Positions 8,489-33,826 of a DNA stretch of 51,660 bases are shown here, one piece after another; position 1 is the stretch's first letter, and each line of letters begins with the position of its first letter. A program made the position numbers and the translations under genes. The notes under the pieces were generated by a model that saw nothing but the letters and a program-made list of their open reading frames with translations, did not search any database and was not told the DNA's origin. This DNA comes from a virus (taxonomy: Duplodnaviria; Caudoviricetes): the IMG/VR virus record IMGVR_UViG_3300029309_000064, positions 1 through 51,660 of that record; one strand, written 5' to 3'.

Positions 8489-8697
8489 AATAAATCCTCC
8501 TTAGATGTTTGCTGGCTTATGTGAAGTAAGCCCAAACTTACTTTAAGGGGCTGACGTTTCTAGGGTGCAAGTGTACTGATCAGGTTAACTTGGGCCTATA
8601 CTTAATCAGGTGTGTCTTAACTTAGTTGTTTGGCTTAGTTTAGTAAGAACACAAAGGTAGCTAATATTATTAGGGCTTTATGCTCTTGTCTTAACAT
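8489..8697 (-). promoter_or_regulatory. Structured 5' leader of the capsid mRNA (three hairpins)
   Basis: Stems at 8645-8687, 8543-8620 and 8524-8543 with CC/C(U)AC internal loops and an AGUA/GAA loop-E-like motif. Confidence 0.65.
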
Positions 8698-8702
8698 ACA
8701 CA

Positions 8703-8730
8703 GTTATACATATAAATTGTGTAATGTCAA
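8703..8730 (-). promoter_or_regulatory. Sigma70-like capsid promoter TTGACA-16-TATAAC
   Basis: TTGACA 8730-8725, TATAAC 8708-8703; extended motif shared with 19891-19918. Confidence 0.7.
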
Positions 8731-8737
8731 TACTTTT

Positions 8738-9619
8738 TTAACGTGCAGCACCAGAAAGATCGTAAATAAATTTACCACTACGTATTGACTCCATGATTGC
8801 ATCAGAGTTAGCCTCGTATTCTTGGGCTGTCATCTTTTGCACATCTGACTCACGGAAGCTTCCTGATGTGTCGTTAGTTTCTACTTTGGTTGTGCGTTTA
8901 GTCTTAACTTGAGAAGCTGCCTCTTTAGTAGACTTACGCTTACCTTTTACGTCCATGCCGTTGTCAATCTTGTAAAGATCAATAACACGCACAACAGACT
9001 TAGGATCATCTTGGTTTTCGTACAAGGCATCTTGTACCCACTTAGGTTGTTCCTCTGCCCACTCGTGAAAGTTATCACTAGCGCGTAGATCATCAAAGTC
9101 TTTGTGTATAGAACGTATTTCATCTTCAGCTTTAGAACGATATGTTTCTGCAGCTATCTTATCTAACTCCTGTAGCCTAGCGTCAGCGTTCTTAAACTTT
9201 TCGTTTGCCTTTTTGTCAGCAATAGTTTCTACGATCTGTGCTATCTCAGGATACTTTTTAGCCCAAGCATCTATGCTTTCGTCACTAGCAGGTGGACGTA
9301 CAGAACCATTTTTTGCAGCGTTATCTAGTTTAGCTTTTAGTTCTTTTAGCTCCTCGTTCTGTTTATTTAGATGGCTGCGTAAATCACTATACCGTTTTTT
9401 AAACGTTCTTTCTTCTGCAGATAGTGTCTCTTCTTTATCTTCTGTATTGGCCTCTGCCTCTTTGGTATCGGCCTCTTCGTCACTGGATGATCCCCCTTCC
9501 ATAAGGGCTTTGAGTTCTGCTTCATCCTGTTCTATACGTTTTTTATTTGCATTTCTTGTACTCTTTGATTGTACGAATCCTGCATTTTTTGGTGTCTCCA
9601 CTTCTGCTAGTTCAGGCAT
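8738..9619 (-). CDS. Capsid scaffolding protein (293 aa)
   Basis: Acidic, coiled-coil, FKKRYSDLR motif, immediately upstream of the capsid gene. Confidence 0.75.
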   Translation of the reverse strand: MPELAEVETPKNAGFVQSKSTRNANKKRIEQDEAELKALMEGGSSSDEEADTKEAEANTEDKEETLSAEERTFKKRYSDLRSHLNKQNEELKELKAKLDNAAKNGSVRPPASDESIDAWAKKYPEIAQIVETIADKKANEKFKNADARLQELDKIAAETYRSKAEDEIRSIHKDFDDLRASDNFHEWAEEQPKWVQDALYENQDDPKSVVRVIDLYKIDNGMDVKGKRKSTKEAASQVKTKRTTKVETNDTSGSFRESDVQKMTAQEYEANSDAIMESIRSGKFIYDLSGAAR

Positions 9620-9635
9620 ATTGTATTCCTTTCTT

Positions 9636-9669
9636 ATATGGGGCCAGCGTTATTGCTGGGTAGCCTTAT
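9636..9669 (-). promoter_or_regulatory. Hairpin upstream of the scaffold RBS with CUAC/CC internal loop
   Basis: GG-CUAC-CCAGC-aauaac-GCUGG-CC-CC, just before the AAGGA RBS. Confidence 0.55.
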
Positions 9670-9713: not shown

Positions 9714-11828
9714 TTAAGTTACAGCTTTTTTAATTTCTTCAAATTCTCTTTCTTCGTCTACATCTCTAGGTTTTAATGTTCCTGAAATTATATCACGAAT
9801 CCTTTGTTGTTCTCTTAGTCTATCTATTCTATCGCCAGATGCGCTACTACCATAAGATTCAGATATTTCGTAGGGAGACATATCTTTATATCTATCAACA
9901 GAAACACCAGCAGCCCTTGCTAAGTTTTCTATCTCTACATCTGCTCTAGATCTTTCTTCATCTTTTCGTAAACCACCAAGCATTTCAGTAAGTTTAGTAC
10001 CTTTGATTTTTTCTTCTTTACCTGCATACTTAGCTATAGCTTCTGGTGTAGCTGATCTTGATGTTGATGTAATTCTAATATTTGGTAATATTTGGCCTGT
10101 ATCTTTATCAATACGTGTAGCACTTGGTGGTCTTGATCTAGGTCTAAACCCTCCTGCTGCGTAATACTCATCTACATCACCTATTCTTACAATCTCACCT
10201 GTTTCTGTATCTCTTACCGCTTCTTGTACAGGAACATTTTTTAAATCAAATATTTTTAAATTTCTTTTATCTCTTGCTTCTTGAGTAGGAAAACCCCCTT
10301 CATCCAACTCACTATCTTTAAATGGATTAGCTACTACAGGATCATAACCTGAAACACCTAAAGCAGAACCTAGTATATAATTAGTATCTGCAACCGTAGC
10401 ATAGTAAGGATCATCGAATTTAATTTCTGAAGCTCTTGTATCTGCATCCATTATATTTGCAGTCTTTTCAAAAATTGTTTGTGCTCTGTCCCTTTTTTGT
10501 TTTTCTGCAAGTTTTACTAAACCCAAAGCTCCTGCTGGGCCAGCAATAATCGAACCTACTAAACTTAATATACCTTTTTCTACAAAACTTAATTTTAAAG
10601 GATTTCGTTTATTGTCTAAAGAACTGTTTAATTCATCATAGTGATCTTGATAATCTAAAGGCTCCCATTTATCAACATTTTTAGTTTTAAAACTATTTTC
10701 TATTTCTATTTCTTCTTCTCTACGATCTTTTCTAGCAGACTCTACTATTTTTTGTTCTTCTACTACATCTGCTTCTTTTTCACGAAAACCTGAAGGTATT
10801 CTACTTAAAGGTCTACCATTAAAAAAGAATATAGTTACTCTTTGTCCTGTGCTGTCATTTATAAAAACCCTAGGTTCAAAACCTGTAAATAGTGATCCTG
10901 TACCACCGTAACCTCCAAAACCACCGCCTACAGGTTTAGGTACTTCGCGTTCAGGAACAACACCACCCTCTTGCATATTTATAGGTTTGTCTTGTCCTTT
11001 TTTCTCATCTTCTACTTCAAGCTCATCATCTCTAAAGTAAGACTCTTCACCTTTTTTAATACGCTCCCAACCTTCTGCTGCAGACTTTTGTAGCTCTTCA
11101 AAAAACTCCGTACCAAAGTAACGTCTAGTTGCGGCATTAATCATAAACTCATTAGGACTAGCATTAATGGGTATGTCATCACGTACTTCCTCTGGTGTAG
11201 CACCAAGAGGAGCAGTGTTGCCACTAACAGGATCTTTTGTTTCACTTAGTATCAAGTCCATTTCCATCTGCATAGGATTAGTATCAGGAACAGAACCACC
11301 CTCTGCAAAGTCAAGTGTAAAGCCAGTGTTAGCTACTACAGGAGAATCTTTTTTTAAAAAATCTTTGTCAGCATCCAAATAAGCTTTACCTTTACCAATT
11401 TTAAAAGTAAAACCTTTTTTACCTGAAGGTGTATTTTCATAAGTTAGTCTTGAACCAAATGGAACAGCATCTACTTTATCTATAAAACTTATATCTAACC
11501 CTTCATATAAACCCTCATCAGTAGAATAAAGATCTATTACTTTTCTATCTACAAGATCTATATTAGCTATTGTGTTACCTTTAGAATCTTTGAGAGGAAC
11601 AGTGCGGTTTTCATCGCTGACTGATATAGTGTTTGATTCACCTTTGTCATCATCATAATAAGTTACAGTAGAGGGTTGTTTATTATCATCTTTTTCAGGT
11701 CTAGCTCTTGGCCTAATGTTAGGAGAATCATCTCTACCAGCAGCAGCCTGTGATTCTGCGTAAGCTTTTGCTGAATCATAAGCGTCACGAGCCTCTTGCC
11801 CACCTAAACCATAATCTCTTTCAGGCAT
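9714..11828 (-). CDS. Large hypothetical, probable internal virion protein (704 aa)
   Basis: Between portal and scaffold; DPVSGN...EEVRDDIP...EFMINA core and FAEGG/MQEGG motifs. Confidence 0.55.
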   Translation of the reverse strand: MPERDYGLGGQEARDAYDSAKAYAESQAAAGRDDSPNIRPRARPEKDDNKQPSTVTYYDDDKGESNTISVSDENRTVPLKDSKGNTIANIDLVDRKVIDLYSTDEGLYEGLDISFIDKVDAVPFGSRLTYENTPSGKKGFTFKIGKGKAYLDADKDFLKKDSPVVANTGFTLDFAEGGSVPDTNPMQMEMDLILSETKDPVSGNTAPLGATPEEVRDDIPINASPNEFMINAATRRYFGTEFFEELQKSAAEGWERIKKGEESYFRDDELEVEDEKKGQDKPINMQEGGVVPEREVPKPVGGGFGGYGGTGSLFTGFEPRVFINDSTGQRVTIFFFNGRPLSRIPSGFREKEADVVEEQKIVESARKDRREEEIEIENSFKTKNVDKWEPLDYQDHYDELNSSLDNKRNPLKLSFVEKGILSLVGSIIAGPAGALGLVKLAEKQKRDRAQTIFEKTANIMDADTRASEIKFDDPYYATVADTNYILGSALGVSGYDPVVANPFKDSELDEGGFPTQEARDKRNLKIFDLKNVPVQEAVRDTETGEIVRIGDVDEYYAAGGFRPRSRPPSATRIDKDTGQILPNIRITSTSRSATPEAIAKYAGKEEKIKGTKLTEMLGGLRKDEERSRADVEIENLARAAGVSVDRYKDMSPYEISESYGSSASGDRIDRLREQQRIRDIISGTLKPRDVDEEREFEEIKKAVT

Positions 11829-12009
11829 TTACTTCATCCCTCAAATAAGTTAATCTGCGTAGTGCAGCCAGTTCACCTTGAGCACGATATATACCTTCCA
11901 TAGAAGTTTCGTGTTCTAACTTTTTCTGTGATACAGCTATCTTTGCATTTATGTTTTCTAAGAAAGCATCCCATAAAGGTTTATCGTTTACTAGTTTTTT
12001 TATTGTCAT
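11821..12009 (-). CDS. Small conserved protein after portal (62 aa)
   Basis: IYRAQG helical motif; overlaps both neighbours. Confidence 0.65.
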   Translation of the reverse strand: MTIKKLVNDKPLWDAFLENINAKIAVSQKKLEHETSMEGIYRAQGELAALRRLTYLRDEVNA

Positions 12010-14144
12010 GTTCCAGTAAACCCTTGCTCACCTGGAGTTGGTACTGTTCCTGTGCCTATGTTGCCACCCCCAGCACCTGTAGTATCTTGTACGCCTACTC
12101 CTGCTTGCTCTGGTGCTGCACCTGGTGATGGTGGTGCAGGTGGTCCTTGTGGTGCTCCATCTGGTGGAGCAGGTGGCGGTTGTTGAAACTTCTTGAGTAT
12201 CTCTGCTTGTATAGCTGCATCACCTAGAGAGTTTGTTACCTTATCAGGATCAAGGTCCATGCTCTTAGCTATCTCACGTATGATGTAGTCACTTTTTACA
12301 AAAGGCATGAGCGCTGGGTTAGATGCTACACCCATGAACTGCATCAAGCGTTGTGAGCGTACCTCGTTAGCCATTAGACTTTCTGTACCTGATGCCTTAA
12401 CTTCTAGATCACCTTTAATATCACTATCAAAATCAAACTGCATGTTAAATGCAAAGAAAGCCCTACCTATAGGACCGATTAAGTAATCATCTACATTCTT
12501 AACAACATTGCGGATAGAACCATTAGCAGCAGACATAAGCATAGAGATACCAGAAGCAGTACGGCCCACACCAGTGACGCCAGTTTGACCATGCGCGAAA
12601 CTTGGGAACCCTGTACTTTCATCGGCTAACACCCTTGCTTTATCAAACAATTGCATGTTTTCACCTGCTACGTTAGGAAACTTAGTGCCAAAGATACCTT
12701 GTCCTGGTGCTCCCCCTTGCCTACGAAATATCTTACCAGGATACACAGATAAGTCTTGACCTGGAACTAAATTAGTCTCGTCAACTTCGATAATAAGATT
12801 ACCACTTAGCGCTGCATTATCTATTGCCATACGCATAAAACCATTCATAAGGGTCTGTGTATCATCCATATTTTCAGCTATACCTACCCCAAAAAATGAG
12901 TAAGGGTTTAATTCGTATGGTACAGCATAGTAAGGAATACGTGCTGGCTTAAATGGATTCAACACTAAACGTAAAACAGTACCGTTACATATCCAAGCGT
13001 TAACGCTAACTTGCTCTGAGTTCTTTAACTCTTTGGTAATTGTAACACCATTTTCTGCAAGTATATCTGTATCTACGTAACCCCAAAACTCTAGTACTTC
13101 ATATCTATATGGAGCAGAACTATACTGAGATTCATCCTCCATGTCCTGTTCCCAATACTTTTTTTCGTATGACTCACCTAAGTTAATAGCTTCGTTAATA
13201 GACTCCTCTCTAAAAAAAGGTCTTGACTTTAAACCACGCATTTGTGAACGTGTCATGCGGTGACGTTCTACTACAAACTCAGCCTCATCCATATTGTACG
13301 CATCAGGGTCAGGATAAAAGTTCCATATAGAAACGTGACTAGTAGATGGCACAGTCTTAATGGTAGGATTGTAATCGCCTGACTCCATATCCCAATTAGG
13401 ATACTCTTTGTCGATAGCAAATGGTCCCTTCATTATGCCAGTACCAAAAAGCGCCATCTCAAAAGCTGTGTGGCGTAGCTGTTTGTTAGCACCACTTTCC
13501 TCTAGCTGATCATGTATTTTCTTTTCCATCTTCTTAGCTGCAACCATAGCAGGATGAAAAGTAACTGTGCTTTGATTTGTACCTGGACCTTCAATAACTT
13601 TATCACCCATCTGCTCTAGTTTATTTTCTAGAGGACCAAGACGCTTCATGCGGTCATACATAGTCTCGCCAGGTTTTAACTTTTCATCAGGGTCAAATAA
13701 ATAAGAAACCTTTGGTTCTTTTCCAAAGGCTGATGATAGTTCTTCTTGAGCTTGTTCTGCATTAGGGTCTATATTAATGTGTACAGACTCAGCTACACCC
13801 TCTGGCAAAGTAGTAGGATTTACTGTAAGTGGAAAGCGTGAGCTACCAAATAACACATCTACAATCTGTCCATACGCAGCTAGAGTTTTTGTTTTAGTGA
13901 CTTTAACAAATACTCTGGACTTTTCAGTCTCAGTAAACTGCACATCAGGACCATATAAACCACGATAGTTACGATATGCGCGAAGCCATCTATTTTCATC
14001 TGTGTATCTTGCGTCTTCTGCACGTTTAAACTTTTCTGTTACAAAGGCAACCACGCTACCTGCGTCTAGCTCATCTCCATCTTGAACAACAGACACTTCA
14101 TCTGTTTCAAAAAGTTCAGCTTGTTCGTTTTCATTTACTGCCAT
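12006..14144 (-). CDS. Portal protein (712 aa)
   Basis: Follows terL; FGTGIMKGP, WNFYPDP, FFGVGIAE, RTASGISML motifs; Pro/Gly-rich tail. Confidence 0.88.
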   Translation of the reverse strand: MAVNENEQAELFETDEVSVVQDGDELDAGSVVAFVTEKFKRAEDARYTDENRWLRAYRNYRGLYGPDVQFTETEKSRVFVKVTKTKTLAAYGQIVDVLFGSSRFPLTVNPTTLPEGVAESVHINIDPNAEQAQEELSSAFGKEPKVSYLFDPDEKLKPGETMYDRMKRLGPLENKLEQMGDKVIEGPGTNQSTVTFHPAMVAAKKMEKKIHDQLEESGANKQLRHTAFEMALFGTGIMKGPFAIDKEYPNWDMESGDYNPTIKTVPSTSHVSIWNFYPDPDAYNMDEAEFVVERHRMTRSQMRGLKSRPFFREESINEAINLGESYEKKYWEQDMEDESQYSSAPYRYEVLEFWGYVDTDILAENGVTITKELKNSEQVSVNAWICNGTVLRLVLNPFKPARIPYYAVPYELNPYSFFGVGIAENMDDTQTLMNGFMRMAIDNAALSGNLIIEVDETNLVPGQDLSVYPGKIFRRQGGAPGQGIFGTKFPNVAGENMQLFDKARVLADESTGFPSFAHGQTGVTGVGRTASGISMLMSAANGSIRNVVKNVDDYLIGPIGRAFFAFNMQFDFDSDIKGDLEVKASGTESLMANEVRSQRLMQFMGVASNPALMPFVKSDYIIREIAKSMDLDPDKVTNSLGDAAIQAEILKKFQQPPPAPPDGAPQGPPAPPSPGAAPEQAGVGVQDTTGAGGGNIGTGTVPTPGEQGFTGT

Positions 14145-19333: not shown

Positions 19334-19599
19334 TACTCACCGTATCCTCGTGTTCGATTAGGGTCTAGGACTTCATGTGACTCCAAGTACCCTTCCATGT
19401 ACATAGCTCTCTCTACATGATCTAAATCATACTTAATTCCTGTACGATTGTAAATAGCTTCACGCACATAGAATACATCTGACTTAGGAATGTGTACTTT
19501 ATGTAAGAAACGTGTGTCCTCTGATGCTAAAGCTTCATAAAAGTCTTCAATAACAGACTCACTTGCATATAGTTGTACCTTTTTTTTGTACATTGTCAA
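19333..19599 (-). CDS. Hypothetical protein, first gene of the late operon (about 85 aa)
   Basis: ORF track; coupled to the next gene. Confidence 0.6.
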   Translation of the reverse strand: MTMYKKKVQLYASESVIEDFYEALASEDTRFLHKVHIPKSDVFYVREAIYNRTGIKYDLDHVERAMYMEGYLESHEVLDPNRTRGYGE

Positions 19600-19611
19600 G
19601 TCTTTATTTAA

Positions 19612-19745
19612 GGAAAAAGATAAAAAGTACTACAAACGTCTAGATGTACATGAGGGAGAGGAGACACAGATGGAGTTGTATCATCTGAACGTCTGTAGTA
19701 CTTATAGTTTAACTACAAGTTATTATTATTATAGTAGTTATGTAA
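19612..19745 (-). ncRNA. Candidate small RNA: long hairpin with anti-RBS loop and intrinsic terminator
   Basis: Stem 19626-19702 (AGUACUACAGACGU/ACGUUUGUAGUACU), loop ACUCCAUCUGUGUCUCCUCUCCCUCA, then UUUUAUCUUUUU; upstream TTGACA at 19776-19771; 5' end approximate. Confidence 0.6.
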
Positions 19746-19871
19746 TTATATTATCATATATTTAATTATATGTCAATAGTTTATTTATATTTAATTATAT
19801 TATTGTTAGTTTAACTATAAGTTGTACTATCCTATGTCCAATTCTTTATGTTTTTACTATAAAGTTTAACT
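19706..19871. repeat. Three copies of AGTTTAACT in an AT-rich intergenic tract
   Basis: Copies at 19706-19714, 19808-19816 and 19863-19871. Confidence 0.6.
19748..19776 (-). promoter_or_regulatory. Sigma70-like promoter TTGACA-17-TAATAT
   Basis: Perfect -35; AT-rich -10 region. Confidence 0.5.
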
Positions 19872-19890
19872 TAGCTGCTACTGCTACGCA

Positions 19891-19918
19891 GTTATACATA
19901 AAAATATACCCTAGTCAA
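19891..19918 (-). promoter_or_regulatory. Late promoter TTGACT-16-TATAAC
   Basis: Shares TATGTATAACTGYGTA and the 16-nt spacer with the capsid promoter. Confidence 0.65.
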
Positions 19919-20955
19919 GTAGTAACGTTACGTAACTTTACTCATATTTCTTTAATAGCTTGTATTATTAGACAAACAACCATGTCCGTATACAAAATAT
20001 AGTACTCTAAAAGTAAAAATCCCGTGTGTTGCAGAGTATGTATACATATACGGCATACCCCCCGATGGCCCTCGCCCGACCCCACTATCGTTCTTAGTCT
20101 GATTGCGGCATTTCATAGGTCAAAAGCGACATAGTAAAACTAAAAAGAGCAATTCAAAACCGATTCATACTCATAAGTTATTGTTTTTATTACACTTTAT
20201 TACAGATAGGGTATCAGTAAACTTAGGAATTGGACTTATTTACGTTCAAATCTGGACTGATTCGCTGAAAACAAATAGTGGATGCACAACTTAGAACGAA
20301 TCAGGAACAAACGCAGCTTTTAGAACAACACGAGAACATTACCAGTATATCCCCCATGTCATGCTGCACAGATACACCCCAAGCTTTTTTTGCCATTATA
20401 ATGTATAAAACTTTTTTTGTTTATCGTGCATTTTTTTCTTGCAATATGTTTTTGTTTCGTGTCATGGTTATCACATGGAAAGCAGAACACAGCGAAACAT
20501 TCGAAAGACTAAGTTTCCAACATGACGCACCACGCAAGGCCTAGCAATCAAGTGGGCCACGAATAAAAGACTAAACTAATACTTGACTACCAAACTACAA
20601 ACTGACAGACTAAATGTAACAAAACAGAAAGGACAACCAAAGCGACACACAAAAGATTAGACATAAACGTAGCAATAGCGCATAGCCTAGCGCAAGAATA
20701 AAGCGTGAATGGAGCCTGGATTTCCAGTGCCTCTTGGCCCGACGATAAGTCACGATAGCAATAAATGTGTACGGCACTAAGCTATCTGAAAGAGTTGGCA
20801 TACTCATACCCATTGAAAAGATGATAACCTACTGATTGTCTTTGGATGTTTTTTGTTATGACACAAGCTGACTAATTTAGGCCAACCTAAACTTATGCTT
20901 GACGTATGGGTTGGCTTGTGTCTTACTGAACACATCAACACAATGAGGTGACACA

Positions 20956-21117
20956 ATGACATTATATACCCTACCCCATAAATTTACCGTACATCGTTCT
21001 AAAATAGATGGGACTAGCTTTGTTCTAATGTGTAACGGTAATTTTGTTTCTTGTGCAGAAACGCTAGATGATATTTTTATCACCTATGGTAATCAATTGA
21101 AATATGCAAAAGGGTAA
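20956..21117 (+). CDS. 53-aa early hypothetical protein
   Basis: GAGGTG RBS, ATG 20956, MTLYTLPHKFTVHRSKIDG... Confidence 0.55.
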   Translation: MTLYTLPHKFTVHRSKIDGTSFVLMCNGNFVSCAETLDDIFITYGNQLKYAKG

Positions 21118-21123
21118 GACACC

Positions 21124-30894: not shown

Positions 30895-32933
30895 GAAGAG
30901 TTCTTGATGTAGAAAACTCTATCACTTTACGTGATGGTAAGATACACAACGATCCATTTGAACCTAGTAACACACTTACACAGGTGGGTGTGCTTTGCTT
31001 AGATACACAACAGCAGTCTCTGCTTTGCTTTGACCATCAAGAAAAAAATAACTCAGAAGACAACAAGTGTAAACTACAGAGGTGGCTTGACTCTACCACG
31101 CTACTAATAGGACACAACTTGCAGTATGACTTGTCATGGTTGTGGGCTAGTGGATTTACTTATGATGGCGACATATATGATACCATGCTGGCTGAGTATC
31201 TGCTTTTGCGTGGACAAAAAGAACCTTTGAGTTTAGAGCAATGCGCCCAGCGCAGACAGTTAGAGTATCAGAAGGATGATACACTAAAGTCTTATTACAA
31301 AAAAGGATATAACACAAATGAAATACCCTTGGATGAACTTAGCTATTATTTGTCTTGCGATCTTCTTAGTACTGGTGAGTTGTACAAATCCATTGAAAAA
31401 GACTATCAAGACCCTGCCTCAACTTCCCTATATAACGTCAGAGACATTACCTTCCGCACCTGCAAGTCCCTTGCCAGAATGTACATGCGAGGGTTCAGGG
31501 TGGATACTACCGCCCTCAAACATGTCCGTGATGAGTTCCAACGAGAGCGAAACGAAATCGAAGATAGATTGCAGGAGCAAGTGCGAACACTCATGGGAGG
31601 AACACCCATAAACTTAAACTCACCAGAACAACTATCTCAAGTTTTCTTTAGTAGAAGAATACACAACAAGAAAGAGTGGGCTGACTTGTTTGAGTTTGCA
31701 GGTACACTTAAAAACTTCCAAGATATAGTAGAGAAGAACAGTGATCTTATCTTGAAGACATACGCTGTGACATGCCCTACCTGTAAAGGTAAGGGAAAAA
31801 CATATAAAGTAAGGAAGGATGGCACAAAGTATGCCAAACCTAATAAATGTAAGGACTGTGATGCAAGAGGCTATCAGCTACGTGAGTTACGAGAGGTTGC
31901 AGGTCTACAGTTTAGAGCGCCTAACAAGTCTTGGATTAGTGCTAACGGTTTTAGCACAGGTAAAGATAAACTAGATGTCCTTATAGCTAATGCAAAAACA
32001 AAAGGTATGAAAGATGCAGAACGATTTATTACGGATGTTAAAAGGCTTTCTGCTATTAGCAGTTATCTCAGTAGCTTTGTGGATGGTATTTCCACCTACA
32101 CTAAAAAAGATGGACTCCTCCACGTTGGACTTACCCAGCATATCACCAGCACAGGTAGATTTTCTGGAAGAAACCCTAACATGCAGAACATGCCAAGAGG
32201 AGGAACCTTCCCTGTAAAGCGTGTGTTTATTTCGCGCTGGGCTGATGGTCACATATTGGAGGCTGACTTTGCCCAGCTTGAGTTTCGCACAGCAGCGTTT
32301 CTTGCACAGGATGACACAGCTATGCAAGAGATAGACACAGGGTTTGATGTACACAGCTACACAGCAAAGGTTATTTCTGATGCAGGGCAACCTACTACTA
32401 GACAGGAAGCCAAAGCTCACACATTTGCACCTCTCTTTGGAGCTACCTCGTATGGCAGAAGTAAAGCAGAGGGTGCGTACTACGAGCACTTTGTAGAGAA
32501 GTACAAAGGTATAGCTAGGTGGCACAAGGAATTAGGTAATGAGGCACTACGCTTTCAAAAGATAACTAACGTAAGTGGTAGGCAATATGCTTTCCCTGAC
32601 GTTACACGTAGAGCGAATGGTAGTGTGTCACACTTTACTAGGATTAAGAACTACCCTGTGCAAGGTTTTGCTACAGGTGATGTAGTACCGCTTGTCTTGA
32701 TAGAATTAGATGCTAGGTTAGAAAAACTACACTCAGGTATAGTTAACAGTGTGCATGATTCTGTAGTTGTAGACGTACACCCAAGCGAAAAAGAATACGT
32801 GGTTGAAATGATAGACACATTGAATGAAGATCTTAATAGTATAGTGGAGGAAGCGTATGGCATAAAAATAAACGTGCCTTTATTACTAGAAGCTAAAATA
32901 GGAAAGAATTGGCTTGACATTAAGGACGTTTAG
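30891..32933 (+). CDS. polA: Family A DNA polymerase with 3'-5' exonuclease and inserted DnaJ-type zinc finger
   Basis: Exo DVE, GHNLQYD; TGRFS, ADFAQLEFR, KAHTFAPLFG, NYPVQG, VHDS; insert CPTCKGKG...CKDCDARG. Confidence 0.95.
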   Translation: MRRVLDVENSITLRDGKIHNDPFEPSNTLTQVGVLCLDTQQQSLLCFDHQEKNNSEDNKCKLQRWLDSTTLLIGHNLQYDLSWLWASGFTYDGDIYDTMLAEYLLLRGQKEPLSLEQCAQRRQLEYQKDDTLKSYYKKGYNTNEIPLDELSYYLSCDLLSTGELYKSIEKDYQDPASTSLYNVRDITFRTCKSLARMYMRGFRVDTTALKHVRDEFQRERNEIEDRLQEQVRTLMGGTPINLNSPEQLSQVFFSRRIHNKKEWADLFEFAGTLKNFQDIVEKNSDLILKTYAVTCPTCKGKGKTYKVRKDGTKYAKPNKCKDCDARGYQLRELREVAGLQFRAPNKSWISANGFSTGKDKLDVLIANAKTKGMKDAERFITDVKRLSAISSYLSSFVDGISTYTKKDGLLHVGLTQHITSTGRFSGRNPNMQNMPRGGTFPVKRVFISRWADGHILEADFAQLEFRTAAFLAQDDTAMQEIDTGFDVHSYTAKVISDAGQPTTRQEAKAHTFAPLFGATSYGRSKAEGAYYEHFVEKYKGIARWHKELGNEALRFQKITNVSGRQYAFPDVTRRANGSVSHFTRIKNYPVQGFATGDVVPLVLIELDARLEKLHSGIVNSVHDSVVVDVHPSEKEYVVEMIDTLNEDLNSIVEEAYGIKINVPLLLEAKIGKNWLDIKDV

Positions 32934-32942
32934 TGGTATAAC
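32914..32942 (+). promoter_or_regulatory. Sigma70 promoter TTGACA-17-TATAAC
   Basis: TTGACA 32914-32919, TATAAC 32937-32942. Confidence 0.7.
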
Positions 32943-32974: not shown

Positions 32975-33826
32975 ATGAGTACAGAAGTTGCACTTAGTGT
33001 AGACAACATGAACCTAGCTGACGCTATGGGTTTCTCAGCGTCTGCAGCAAGTGGTGGTAGTGGTTCTAACTTACACAGGATTACTGCTACTGTAATACAG
33101 GAAGTACATCCAGACACAAACAAGATTGTATCATCCCCTGTATTTAAGATTAGAAAAGATGAAGATGAGTTCTATTCTCGTGAGATAGAGATACGTCTTT
33201 TTGCAGAACGCCAACGCTGGCAGAAGTGGGACAGTGAAAATAATACCTTCCAAAAAACTGTCATGTCTACTAACTTAAATACAGACTTGAAGGATACTTT
33301 AGGTACGTTTAATTTGGGTAGACCTACTGGTTACATCAAAGACTTTAATGGTTTACCTGAGACTACAAAAGATATTATTCGTTCTGTTAATCGTGTTAAA
33401 GTTTACATGGGTATGGTTATCTTTTCAGAACCTTTCTATGAGGGTGGTGCTCACGTAGATACATACGATGGTTTTGAAGTACCTTTTATAGCTGATGTTA
33501 AAAACCGTGAGAGTTTGAAATCAATAGACAATGTTGTTGCTAAGTTGATGAACAAGCGCATCTCTCCAGTAGAGCACACTATTACCTTGACAGGTGATGT
33601 CAGAGCCATGCCTAACGGTAATAAGTATGCGGTGATGCAAGCCTCACTCAATGAACTTGTAACCATTGCTAATGGTGACAACGATGTCCTGCAAAACTTT
33701 GTAGATTACGTTAACAACACTAACGATTATATTCTAAAAAAGTGGGATGAAACACACGTAGAGAAACTTGATGACGAGTCTTCAAAGATTGTATCTAATA
33801 TCGTAGACTTGGAGGACTTTGAATAA
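32975..33826 (+). CDS. Probable ssDNA-binding protein (283 aa)
   Basis: Follows the polymerase with its own promoter; acidic C-terminus DLEDFE; function inferred. Confidence 0.5.
   Translation: MSTEVALSVDNMNLADAMGFSASAASGGSGSNLHRITATVIQEVHPDTNKIVSSPVFKIRKDEDEFYSREIEIRLFAERQRWQKWDSENNTFQKTVMSTNLNTDLKDTLGTFNLGRPTGYIKDFNGLPETTKDIIRSVNRVKVYMGMVIFSEPFYEGGAHVDTYDGFEVPFIADVKNRESLKSIDNVVAKLMNKRISPVEHTITLTGDVRAMPNGNKYAVMQASLNELVTIANGDNDVLQNFVDYVNNTNDYILKKWDETHVEKLDDESSKIVSNIVDLEDFE

Follow-up and report, generated by a model that had tools for sequence, protein, structure and literature searches.

A C-rich internal-loop module recurs in the predicted cis-acting RNA leaders of the scaffold-like and capsid genes of HMO-2011-type phages

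The 51,660-base IMG/VR virus record IMGVR_UViG_3300029309_000064 (here, the window; 94% complete by the database's rating) carries on its minus strand a major capsid protein gene directly preceded by the gene of a putative scaffolding protein, and both genes are headed by leaders that appear to be conserved, structured cis-acting RNA. The leaders share one small module, an asymmetric C-rich internal loop in which a paired C-G (rarely U-A or U-G) is flanked by a (Y)NAC strand and a CC strand; it occurs in either helix orientation and in two loop sizes, 2 × 4 (CC/CUAC) and 2 × 3 (CC/CAC). An initial annotation of the minus strand had proposed two hairpins before the capsid gene and one before the scaffold gene, with a similar loop occurring four times between different flanking stems. 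All four elements are present where they had been placed (M1–M4, Table 1), and in relatives the loop letters are fixed and the stems covary, M2 being the copy that deviates in this window. With moderate confidence we read the module as a translational operator, i.e., the putative recognition site of one trans-acting factor, possibly the scaffold protein.

Taken alone, the hairpins of the window barely exceed chance. The capsid leader folds with a z-score of −2.30 (3 of 200 shuffles as good) and the scaffold leader with one of −0.77 (40 of 200). A strict module scan of the window returned three matches against 0.82 ± 0.93 in 200 shuffles, and a relaxed scan returned 18 against 14.7 ± 4.1, the chance rate. 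The minimum free energy (MFE) fold of the 249-nucleotide (nt) capsid leader yields hairpin 1 and the core of hairpin 2, with the 3′ basal strand pairing with the Shine–Dalgarno (SD) sequence instead. Comparative evidence decides. The comparative set comprised 80 IMG/VR loci whose capsids are 79–90% identical in protein; in the 70 loci with the upstream gene in view, the scaffold–capsid gap measures 221–293 nt. RNAalifold on a raw MAFFT alignment of whole leaders gave only nine pairs because the indel-rich loops misalign, and it was replaced by segment alignments and loop-anchored counts.

When our structure was imposed on a 40-sequence alignment of hairpin 2, 84.1% of cells were paired, compared with 28–48% for slid partners, and 143 cells carried double changes against 18–51 in the slid controls; none of 500 shuffles reached the observed score. 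The scaffold hairpin behaved likewise, with 77.6% of cells paired against 11–48% slid and no shuffle of 500 as high. In a broader set, in which some columns were fixed by the search pattern, it retained 75.2% against 14–39%, with double changes in 10 of its 12 pairs. G-U pairs are frequent in both hairpins, so the structure belongs to the gene-strand RNA. In hairpin 1 both stems covary, most stem positions showing four to six pair types. A lack of covariation and loop conservation among relatives had been named at the outset as evidence against such an element; both are found at hairpin 1, hairpin 2, and the scaffold hairpin.

Covariance models were specific. The hairpin 2 model (R1) has one match in the whole window (8542–8623, 60.1 bits, E = 4.9e-13) and recovers the homologous site in phages CRP-9 (89 bits), HMO-2011 (43 bits), and CRP-212 (27 bits); an R1 search did not detect hairpin 2 in Rhizobium or Pelagibacter phages. 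The sole window match of the scaffold-leader model (R2) is the scaffold leader itself (44.5 bits, E = 4e-12). On whole records, R2 matches once each in HMO-2011, CRP-9, phiM6, and RHph_N3_19, always directly before the scaffold homolog, and has no match in the whole CRP-212 record.

In the capsid leader, the arrangement begins with a promoter. Of 65 distinct capsid-upstream regions, 64 contain TTGACA-N16-TATAAC directly after the scaffold stop codon, each time with a spacing of 16 nt; the capsid gene therefore appears to have its own promoter and a leader of ~190–260 nt, whose transcript would start near 8697–8695. The motif was not listed by a consensus promoter scan, which demanded T at the last −10 position. 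Of 64 distinct capsid leaders, 63 retain an intact hairpin 1, which starts 7–25 nt past the −10 hexamer. Its module has a CC short strand in all 63, and its long strand reads CUAC in 48, CCAC in 8, NCUAC in 6, and AUUAC in 1. Hairpin 2 forms a roughly 25-base-pair (bp) coaxial helix interrupted by internal loops. M3 (GG-CC...CAC-CC) was found in 64 of 64 distinct leaders, with a long strand of CAC in 56 and CUAC in 3, and M2 in 51 of 64 by strict pattern; the majority of relatives have ACUAC opposite CC at M2, where the window has ACACAC opposite CCC. Hairpin 3 is kept in relatives with altered stem letters, as judged by eye given register shifts in the MAFFT alignment, and GGAGGA is conserved in the alignment of capsid leaders.

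M4, the copy before the scaffold-like gene, was recovered from 52 of the 57 distinct scaffold leaders, and in all 52 parsed leaders its loop CC lies 5–10 nt before the SD (taken as the first SD-like tetramer) and 14–23 nt before the ATG. Each M4 hairpin has only 7–12 base pairs, and many are capped by UNCG-type tetraloops (UACG, UUCG). In one relative (L035, 1798–1875), the 5′ half of M4 (CGAUAAGGCUACC) is duplicated 27 nt upstream of the full hairpin.

The module extends well beyond the near relatives, according to our own parse of the named phages. It precedes the scaffold homolog in HMO-2011, CRP-9, CRP-212, Rhizobium phage RHph_N3_19, and Sinorhizobium phage phiM6; in the Pelagibacter phages HTVC104P (two in tandem), HTVC115P (two), and HTVC033P; and in Aeromonas phage 1233, while Vibrio phage CHOED has a variant loop, AUAC opposite AC. 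Hosts of phages with the canonical loop thus include SAR116, Roseobacter, SAR11, Rhizobium, and Aeromonas, spanning Alpha- and Gammaproteobacteria, which argues that the module follows the phage scaffold/capsid gene pair. A degenerate DNA pattern was scanned for in viral contigs, some of which overlap the 80 capsid loci: among the 80 matches listed, 28 of the 34 that form a stem of at least four pairs sit just before a scaffold homolog, itself followed by a capsid homolog, compared with only 2 of the 46 non-hairpin ones. Modules in the capsid leader are found in HMO-2011-type phages; phiM6 and RHph carry a two-module hairpin there. In Pelagibacter-phage and certain other lineages, the capsid leader is short and holds none.

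Tandem modules occur in several distant lineages, with covarying outer helices of 4–5 bp. From the HTVC104P lineage, 80 further loci gave 67 distinct upstream regions, 45 of which hold two modules; zero counts partly reflect misassumed gene starts. The outer helix of the SD-proximal module in this lineage has as its 3′ strand CAAAGGAGG or CUAAAGG, i.e., the SD itself, so that the helix framing the loop encloses the ribosome binding site. A compensatory change from UUAG/CUAA to UUUG/CAAA is seen in this outer helix, and in a Pelagibacter-phage sublineage (L239, L244, L245, L249, L256–L259, L264, L265, L268, L269, and L271) it is formed by CUUUUUUUG paired with CAAAGGAGG, ~35 nt before the scaffold start.

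The initial annotation had further read AGUA opposite GAA in hairpin 2 as a sarcin-ricin/loop-E signature. In the loop-E (bulged-G) motif AGUA is followed by a helix and then by GAA, and hairpin 2 appears to match this orientation. The signature is present in the window and its facing strands abut the same helix, but it is clade-limited. It occurs in 52 of 64 distinct leaders; it is absent in the other 12 near relatives and also in HMO-2011, CRP-212, and L129, though hairpin 2 of HMO-2011 and CRP-212 matches R1. We therefore regard AGUA/GAA as an accessory of one clade that stands outside the shared module.

The loop letters are fixed while the stems are free, the place relative to the scaffold ribosome binding site is fixed, copies occur in tandem, and the module is inherited with the scaffold and capsid genes across host classes; these properties together suggest a recognition site for a single trans-acting factor that would act on scaffold translation. 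Tandem copies are common for sites of oligomeric binders. The proposed factor is most likely a protein. The primary, ancestral copy would be the one just upstream of the ribosome binding site of the scaffold-like gene, where the bound factor, or a helix stabilized by it, would block access of the 30S subunit. In HMO-2011-type phages the capsid gene would in addition have gained its own promoter and a long module-bearing leader, as it would, in a reduced version, in the Rhizobium/Sinorhizobium phages; the capsid mRNA may answer to the same factor via stability or long-range structure.

P22 scaffolding protein reportedly autoregulates its own synthesis by post-transcriptional feedback, and we know of no RNA target defined for it. 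The scaffold protein, acting in such P22-style feedback, would be the most economical candidate factor; alternatively, the factor may be a component common to Proteobacteria. In a full feedback circuit, free scaffold protein would bind the copy at its own ribosome binding site, shutting off its own synthesis, as well as the three copies on the capsid mRNA, altering its stability or translation, and would thereby hold the shell:scaffold ratio. We consider this specific circuit rather unlikely. If it were true, the CUAC/CC loop would be the first sequence-defined RNA operator of procapsid-assembly feedback, in a circuit common to abundant marine podophages of SAR11, SAR116, and Roseobacter as well as Rhizobium, Vibrio, and Aeromonas phages.

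Several observations weigh against the operator reading. At 45 nt or more from the capsid SD, M1–M3 are too distant to be simple steric operators. A switch in the capsid leader that would sequester the SD by pairing GCCUCUU with GGAGG is predicted in most leaders (median pairing 0.75) but is only weakly indicated: mean SD pairing was 0.86 against 0.73 in shuffled leaders, and only 7 of 20 leaders beat all 12 of their shuffles. The switch is not conserved in CRP-212, where a compensatory change preserves the basal helix and no anti-SD is present. HMO-2011 lacks an intact module in hairpin 1. R2 found no scaffold-leader match in the whole records of five more distant isolates, one of which, the Aeromonas record, gave a lone weak match elsewhere, and the module is absent in Pseudoalteromonas phage Slicky01 and in relatives L061 and L077. 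P22 has no module near gene 8, only one weak, distant match inside the gene 8 coding sequence. Finally, PDB sequence and Foldseek searches revealed no known RNA-binding fold in the scaffold-like protein.

The main rival to a recognition site is an architecture that works without any factor: the hairpins would stabilize the mRNAs, a 5′-terminal stem-loop protecting against 5′-end-dependent decay, and set fixed translation rates, the loop acting as a C-loop-like three-dimensional motif that shapes or rigidifies the helix. This idea fits the UNCG-type tetraloops on many M4 hairpins and the location of hairpin 1, which in 63 of 64 leaders stands at the presumed 5′ end or close to it; it also fits the description of C-loops as recurrent structural motifs that change helical twist (PMC9516175). 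A plain stabilizer, however, needs no fixed letters, yet CC and AC-C stay invariant through stem changes at four sites, and the distance from module to scaffold SD is fixed across distant lineages. We therefore consider factor-independent tuning of mRNA stability or translation doubtful. Simple coincidence, i.e., four unrelated conserved hairpins with C-rich loops by chance, would agree with the chance rate of the relaxed module definition in the window. It is already disfavored and hardly credible, since every site preserves the same two strands (CC, and NAC ahead of a paired C) in 52–64 distinct sequences and these strands recur at the same genomic position in distant lineages.

Phage T7 has internal-loop RNase III sites between its genes, and the long interrupted helix of hairpin 2, together with the repetition of conserved hairpins between late genes, could suggest similar processing signals that cut a polycistronic late mRNA into stable units. 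We find this improbable: the M4 hairpins, with their 7–12 base pairs, are too short for RNase III, and the capsid leader, having its own promoter, does not need processing for its 5′ end. A small-ligand or ion sensor, with the conserved internal loops as riboswitch-like tandem aptamers, is quite improbable as well. The invariant unpaired letters of a short hairpin, the tandem copies, and the SD in a flanking helix in one lineage resemble small tandem riboswitches, but no Rfam family matched the leaders, a 2 × 4 loop offers little pocket, and why a metabolite should control scaffold synthesis is not obvious. In the case of the capsid leader alone, one may also think of phage HK022, whose put RNA is a cis-acting transcription antitermination element: two large stem-loops with internal loops right after an invariant promoter could likewise carry RNA polymerase through the long structural operon. 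That the same module adjoins the SD in promoterless scaffold leaders, and that no terminator-like sites were found nearby, makes a put-type role very improbable.

Three more specific pairings were considered and rejected. Kissing-loop dimerization through the apical loop of hairpin 2, which in most cases shows a short palindrome (CUGAUCAG in the window; GGCC, GCGC, or UGAUCA in relatives), is not supported: the non-palindromic GGCA/GGCG variants and relatives that lack the apical hairpin speak against any obligatory dimer. Pairing of GGCUACC with the 3′ domain of 16S ribosomal RNA (rRNA) is not accompanied by the required changes in the modules of Vibrio and Aeromonas phages, and for a pairing of apical GGUAG with CUACC the loop letter varies without covariation.

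A match to an Rfam phage motif, proposed as a check by the initial annotation, was not obtained: with cmscan against Rfam 15, the two leaders had no match at E up to 10, the complete window had none reaching the gathering score, and the HMO-2011, CRP-9, HTVC104P, and phiM6 loci had none at E up to 1. Known translational operators include the MS2 coat protein's replicase hairpin, the T4 gp32 and RegA sites, and ribosomal protein leaders. The module would resemble these as a hairpin with fixed unpaired letters and free stems that adjoins or overlaps a ribosome binding site, although such adjacency is found for M4 and not for M1–M3. It differs in that its recognition feature would be an asymmetric 2 × 3 or 2 × 4 internal loop and not a bulged A or hairpin loop. 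In addition, the module is used in either orientation, and the two mRNAs together carry as many as four copies, three of them far from the SD; its binder is putative. As with P22, a scaffold-type gene stands directly before a P22-type coat gene, the coat being annotated as PF11651 in the HMO-2011 record. In P22, however, the portal and scaffold genes are separated by 13 nt and genes 8 and 5 (scaffold and coat) overlap, leaving no room for a leader, and we treat the link between P22 and the module as an analogy only.

The loop may resemble C-loops, which occur, e.g., in rRNA and the Escherichia coli thrS operator and are presented as protein-binding sites with a part in translational regulation (PMC9516175, PMC2952876). 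Like these, the module is an asymmetric internal loop in a hairpin stem whose longer strand is usually C-initial, with two cytosines around an unpaired A (CAC, CUAC); a C-initial longer strand, expected of C-loops (PMC9516175), is found as CUAC or CCAC in 56 of 63 M1 copies. The potato spindle tuber viroid example in the same source has one free base in the short strand where the module has two Cs, and the two base triples that define a C-loop, joining long-strand bases to the flanking pairs, are invisible from sequence.

A 2023 survey reported 8,495 candidate structured RNAs from IMG/VR, of which 879 lie no more than 25 bp ahead of a gene and five precede a major capsid protein family (PMC10690425). 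It drew on the same database and dealt with elements of the same type, and the available portions of its text contain neither this element nor the shared module or a scaffold link; an anonymous earlier listing among its supplementary entries is possible. Literature searches, including work on HMO-2011 structure and promoters, returned no description of the region, of the shared module, or of a link to the scaffold gene. From the comparative sequence evidence, the module appears to be a new, widely conserved phage cis-regulatory leader motif of a generally known kind.

How tailed phages match scaffold to coat synthesis is a question outstanding since P22 was studied in the 1980s, and to our knowledge no RNA target has been defined. 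The module offers a compact, sequence-defined candidate operator of 25–40 nt at the scaffold ribosome binding site. It is found again on the capsid mRNA and occurs in a broad range of podophages with P22-type coats, several of which rank among the most abundant surface-ocean viruses. Control of scaffold/capsid dosage thereby becomes directly testable, e.g., in Sinorhizobium phage phiM6, which grows on a standard laboratory strain. Phage cis-regulatory RNAs are mostly anonymous, and the module contributes an uncatalogued motif to them; if the loop were a C-loop-type protein site, it could serve as a compact, portable RNA tag.

Table 1. Features of the scaffold and capsid leaders and of the neighboring genes, in window coordinates (ORF, open reading frame; aa, amino acids).
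Feature	Position	Strand	Basis or details
Portal gene	12006-14144	minus	PF23899, phrog_332/1216
62-aa ORF		minus	without any family
704-aa ORF, portal–scaffold interval	9714-11828	minus	without Pfam or PHROG family
Scaffold-leader hairpin, module M4	9640-9665; CUAC 9663-9660, CC 9643-9642	minus	GG-CUAC-CCAGC(AAUAAC)GCUGG-CC-CC
SD-like AAGGA and start codon, scaffold-like gene	9631-9627; 9619-9617	minus	
Putative scaffolding protein gene, 293 aa	8738-9619	minus	putative function; directly upstream of capsid gene; phrog_13678, unknown function
−35 hexamer TTGACA, capsid promoter	8725-8730	minus	sequence
−10 hexamer TATAAC, capsid promoter	8703-8708	minus	sequence
Hairpin 1	8645-8687	minus	inferred 5′ end of capsid mRNA; MFE fold; AAGAGCAUAAAG-CC-CUAAU(AAU)AUUAG-CUAC-CUUUGUGUUCUU
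Module M1 (hairpin 1)	short strand CC 8675-8674; long strand CUAC 8660-8657	minus	
Hairpin 2	8543-8620	minus	contains UAGG-CC-CAAGU...ACUUG-CAC-CCUA; covariance model R1 and covariation
Basal module M2 (hairpin 2)	ACACAC 8615-8610 opposite CCC 8550-8548	minus	
Loop-E-like pair (hairpin 2)	AGUA 8602-8599 opposite GAA 8560-8558	minus	flanks UAGG/CCUA
Module M3 (inner hairpin 2)	CC 8594-8593 opposite CAC 8567-8565	minus	
Apical loop of hairpin 2	8583-8576	minus	displays CUGAUCAG
Hairpin 3	8507-8537	minus	MFE fold; between hairpin 2 and ribosome binding site
Capsid SD AAGGAGGA and start codon	8502-8495; 8488-8486	minus	
Major capsid protein gene, 357 aa	7415-8488	minus	phrog_267 major head protein, E 1.6e-63; PDB 8e16_I, E 3.3e-17

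The closest named relatives of the virus are HMO-2011-type marine podophages, namely Roseobacter phages CRP-9, CRP-1, and CRP-13 and Puniceispirillum phage HMO-2011, with 67–72% nucleotide identity over the capsid region. From its gene position and an all-helical AlphaFold2 model (mean predicted local distance difference test score, 72.8), we take the 293-aa protein to be a putative scaffold. A Pfam search of it gave no match, and no similarity to any named scaffold family was detected; a Foldseek search with the model returned nothing at E < 1, and a PDB sequence search only a spectrin repeat at E 0.14. Homologs were found in 27 phage records. Across 36 sequences, residues 69–81 hold an invariant basic patch (E69, E70, K74, K75, R76, Y77, D79, R81), and a C-terminal GKFxYD...R is conserved at residues 282–293; both are candidate RNA- or coat-binding surfaces. 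The homolog in Rhizobium phage RHph_N3_19 (L084, 1563–2441) is annotated as a 'topoisomerase II domain-containing protein', a label that looks doubtful, as does that of an annotated 138-nt reverse-strand ORF at the 3′ end of the same scaffold gene, extending into the module-bearing capsid leader.

Neither leader was found to hold a terminator-like site by intrinsic terminator criteria; ACUAAACU succeeds hairpin 1. ARAGORN reported no transfer or transfer-messenger RNA in the leader, and a test for a small protein gene there was negative, the overlapping ORFs being only 20–35 aa long; indels between the leaders of relatives have lengths that are not multiples of three, which speaks against a conserved ORF. 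Two contigs from RNA libraries span the junction of capsid gene and leader without mismatch, reaching 8550 and 8571, and are uninformative on start, strand, and transcription.

Farther upstream, the counterpart of the 704-aa ORF varies strongly in size, the gene measuring 4,188 nt in CRP-9 and 3,612 nt in CRP-212. Two weak matches to small nucleolar RNA families within this ORF (10619–10683 and 10794–10870, minus strand; 22.6 and 17.5 bits, E 9.4 and 5.1) lie far below gathering scores and were dismissed as chance. The promoter form TTGAC[A/T]-N16/17-TATAAC occurs only twice elsewhere in the window: at 19918–19891 (minus), where it heads a leftward minus-strand operon, and at 32914–32941 (plus), 40 nt before an ORF at 32975–33826. 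The region 19334–21123, between divergent gene blocks, is AT-rich and without an ORF of at least 90 aa, and a further promoter-like TTGACA...TATGATAAT lies inside it, near 19776.

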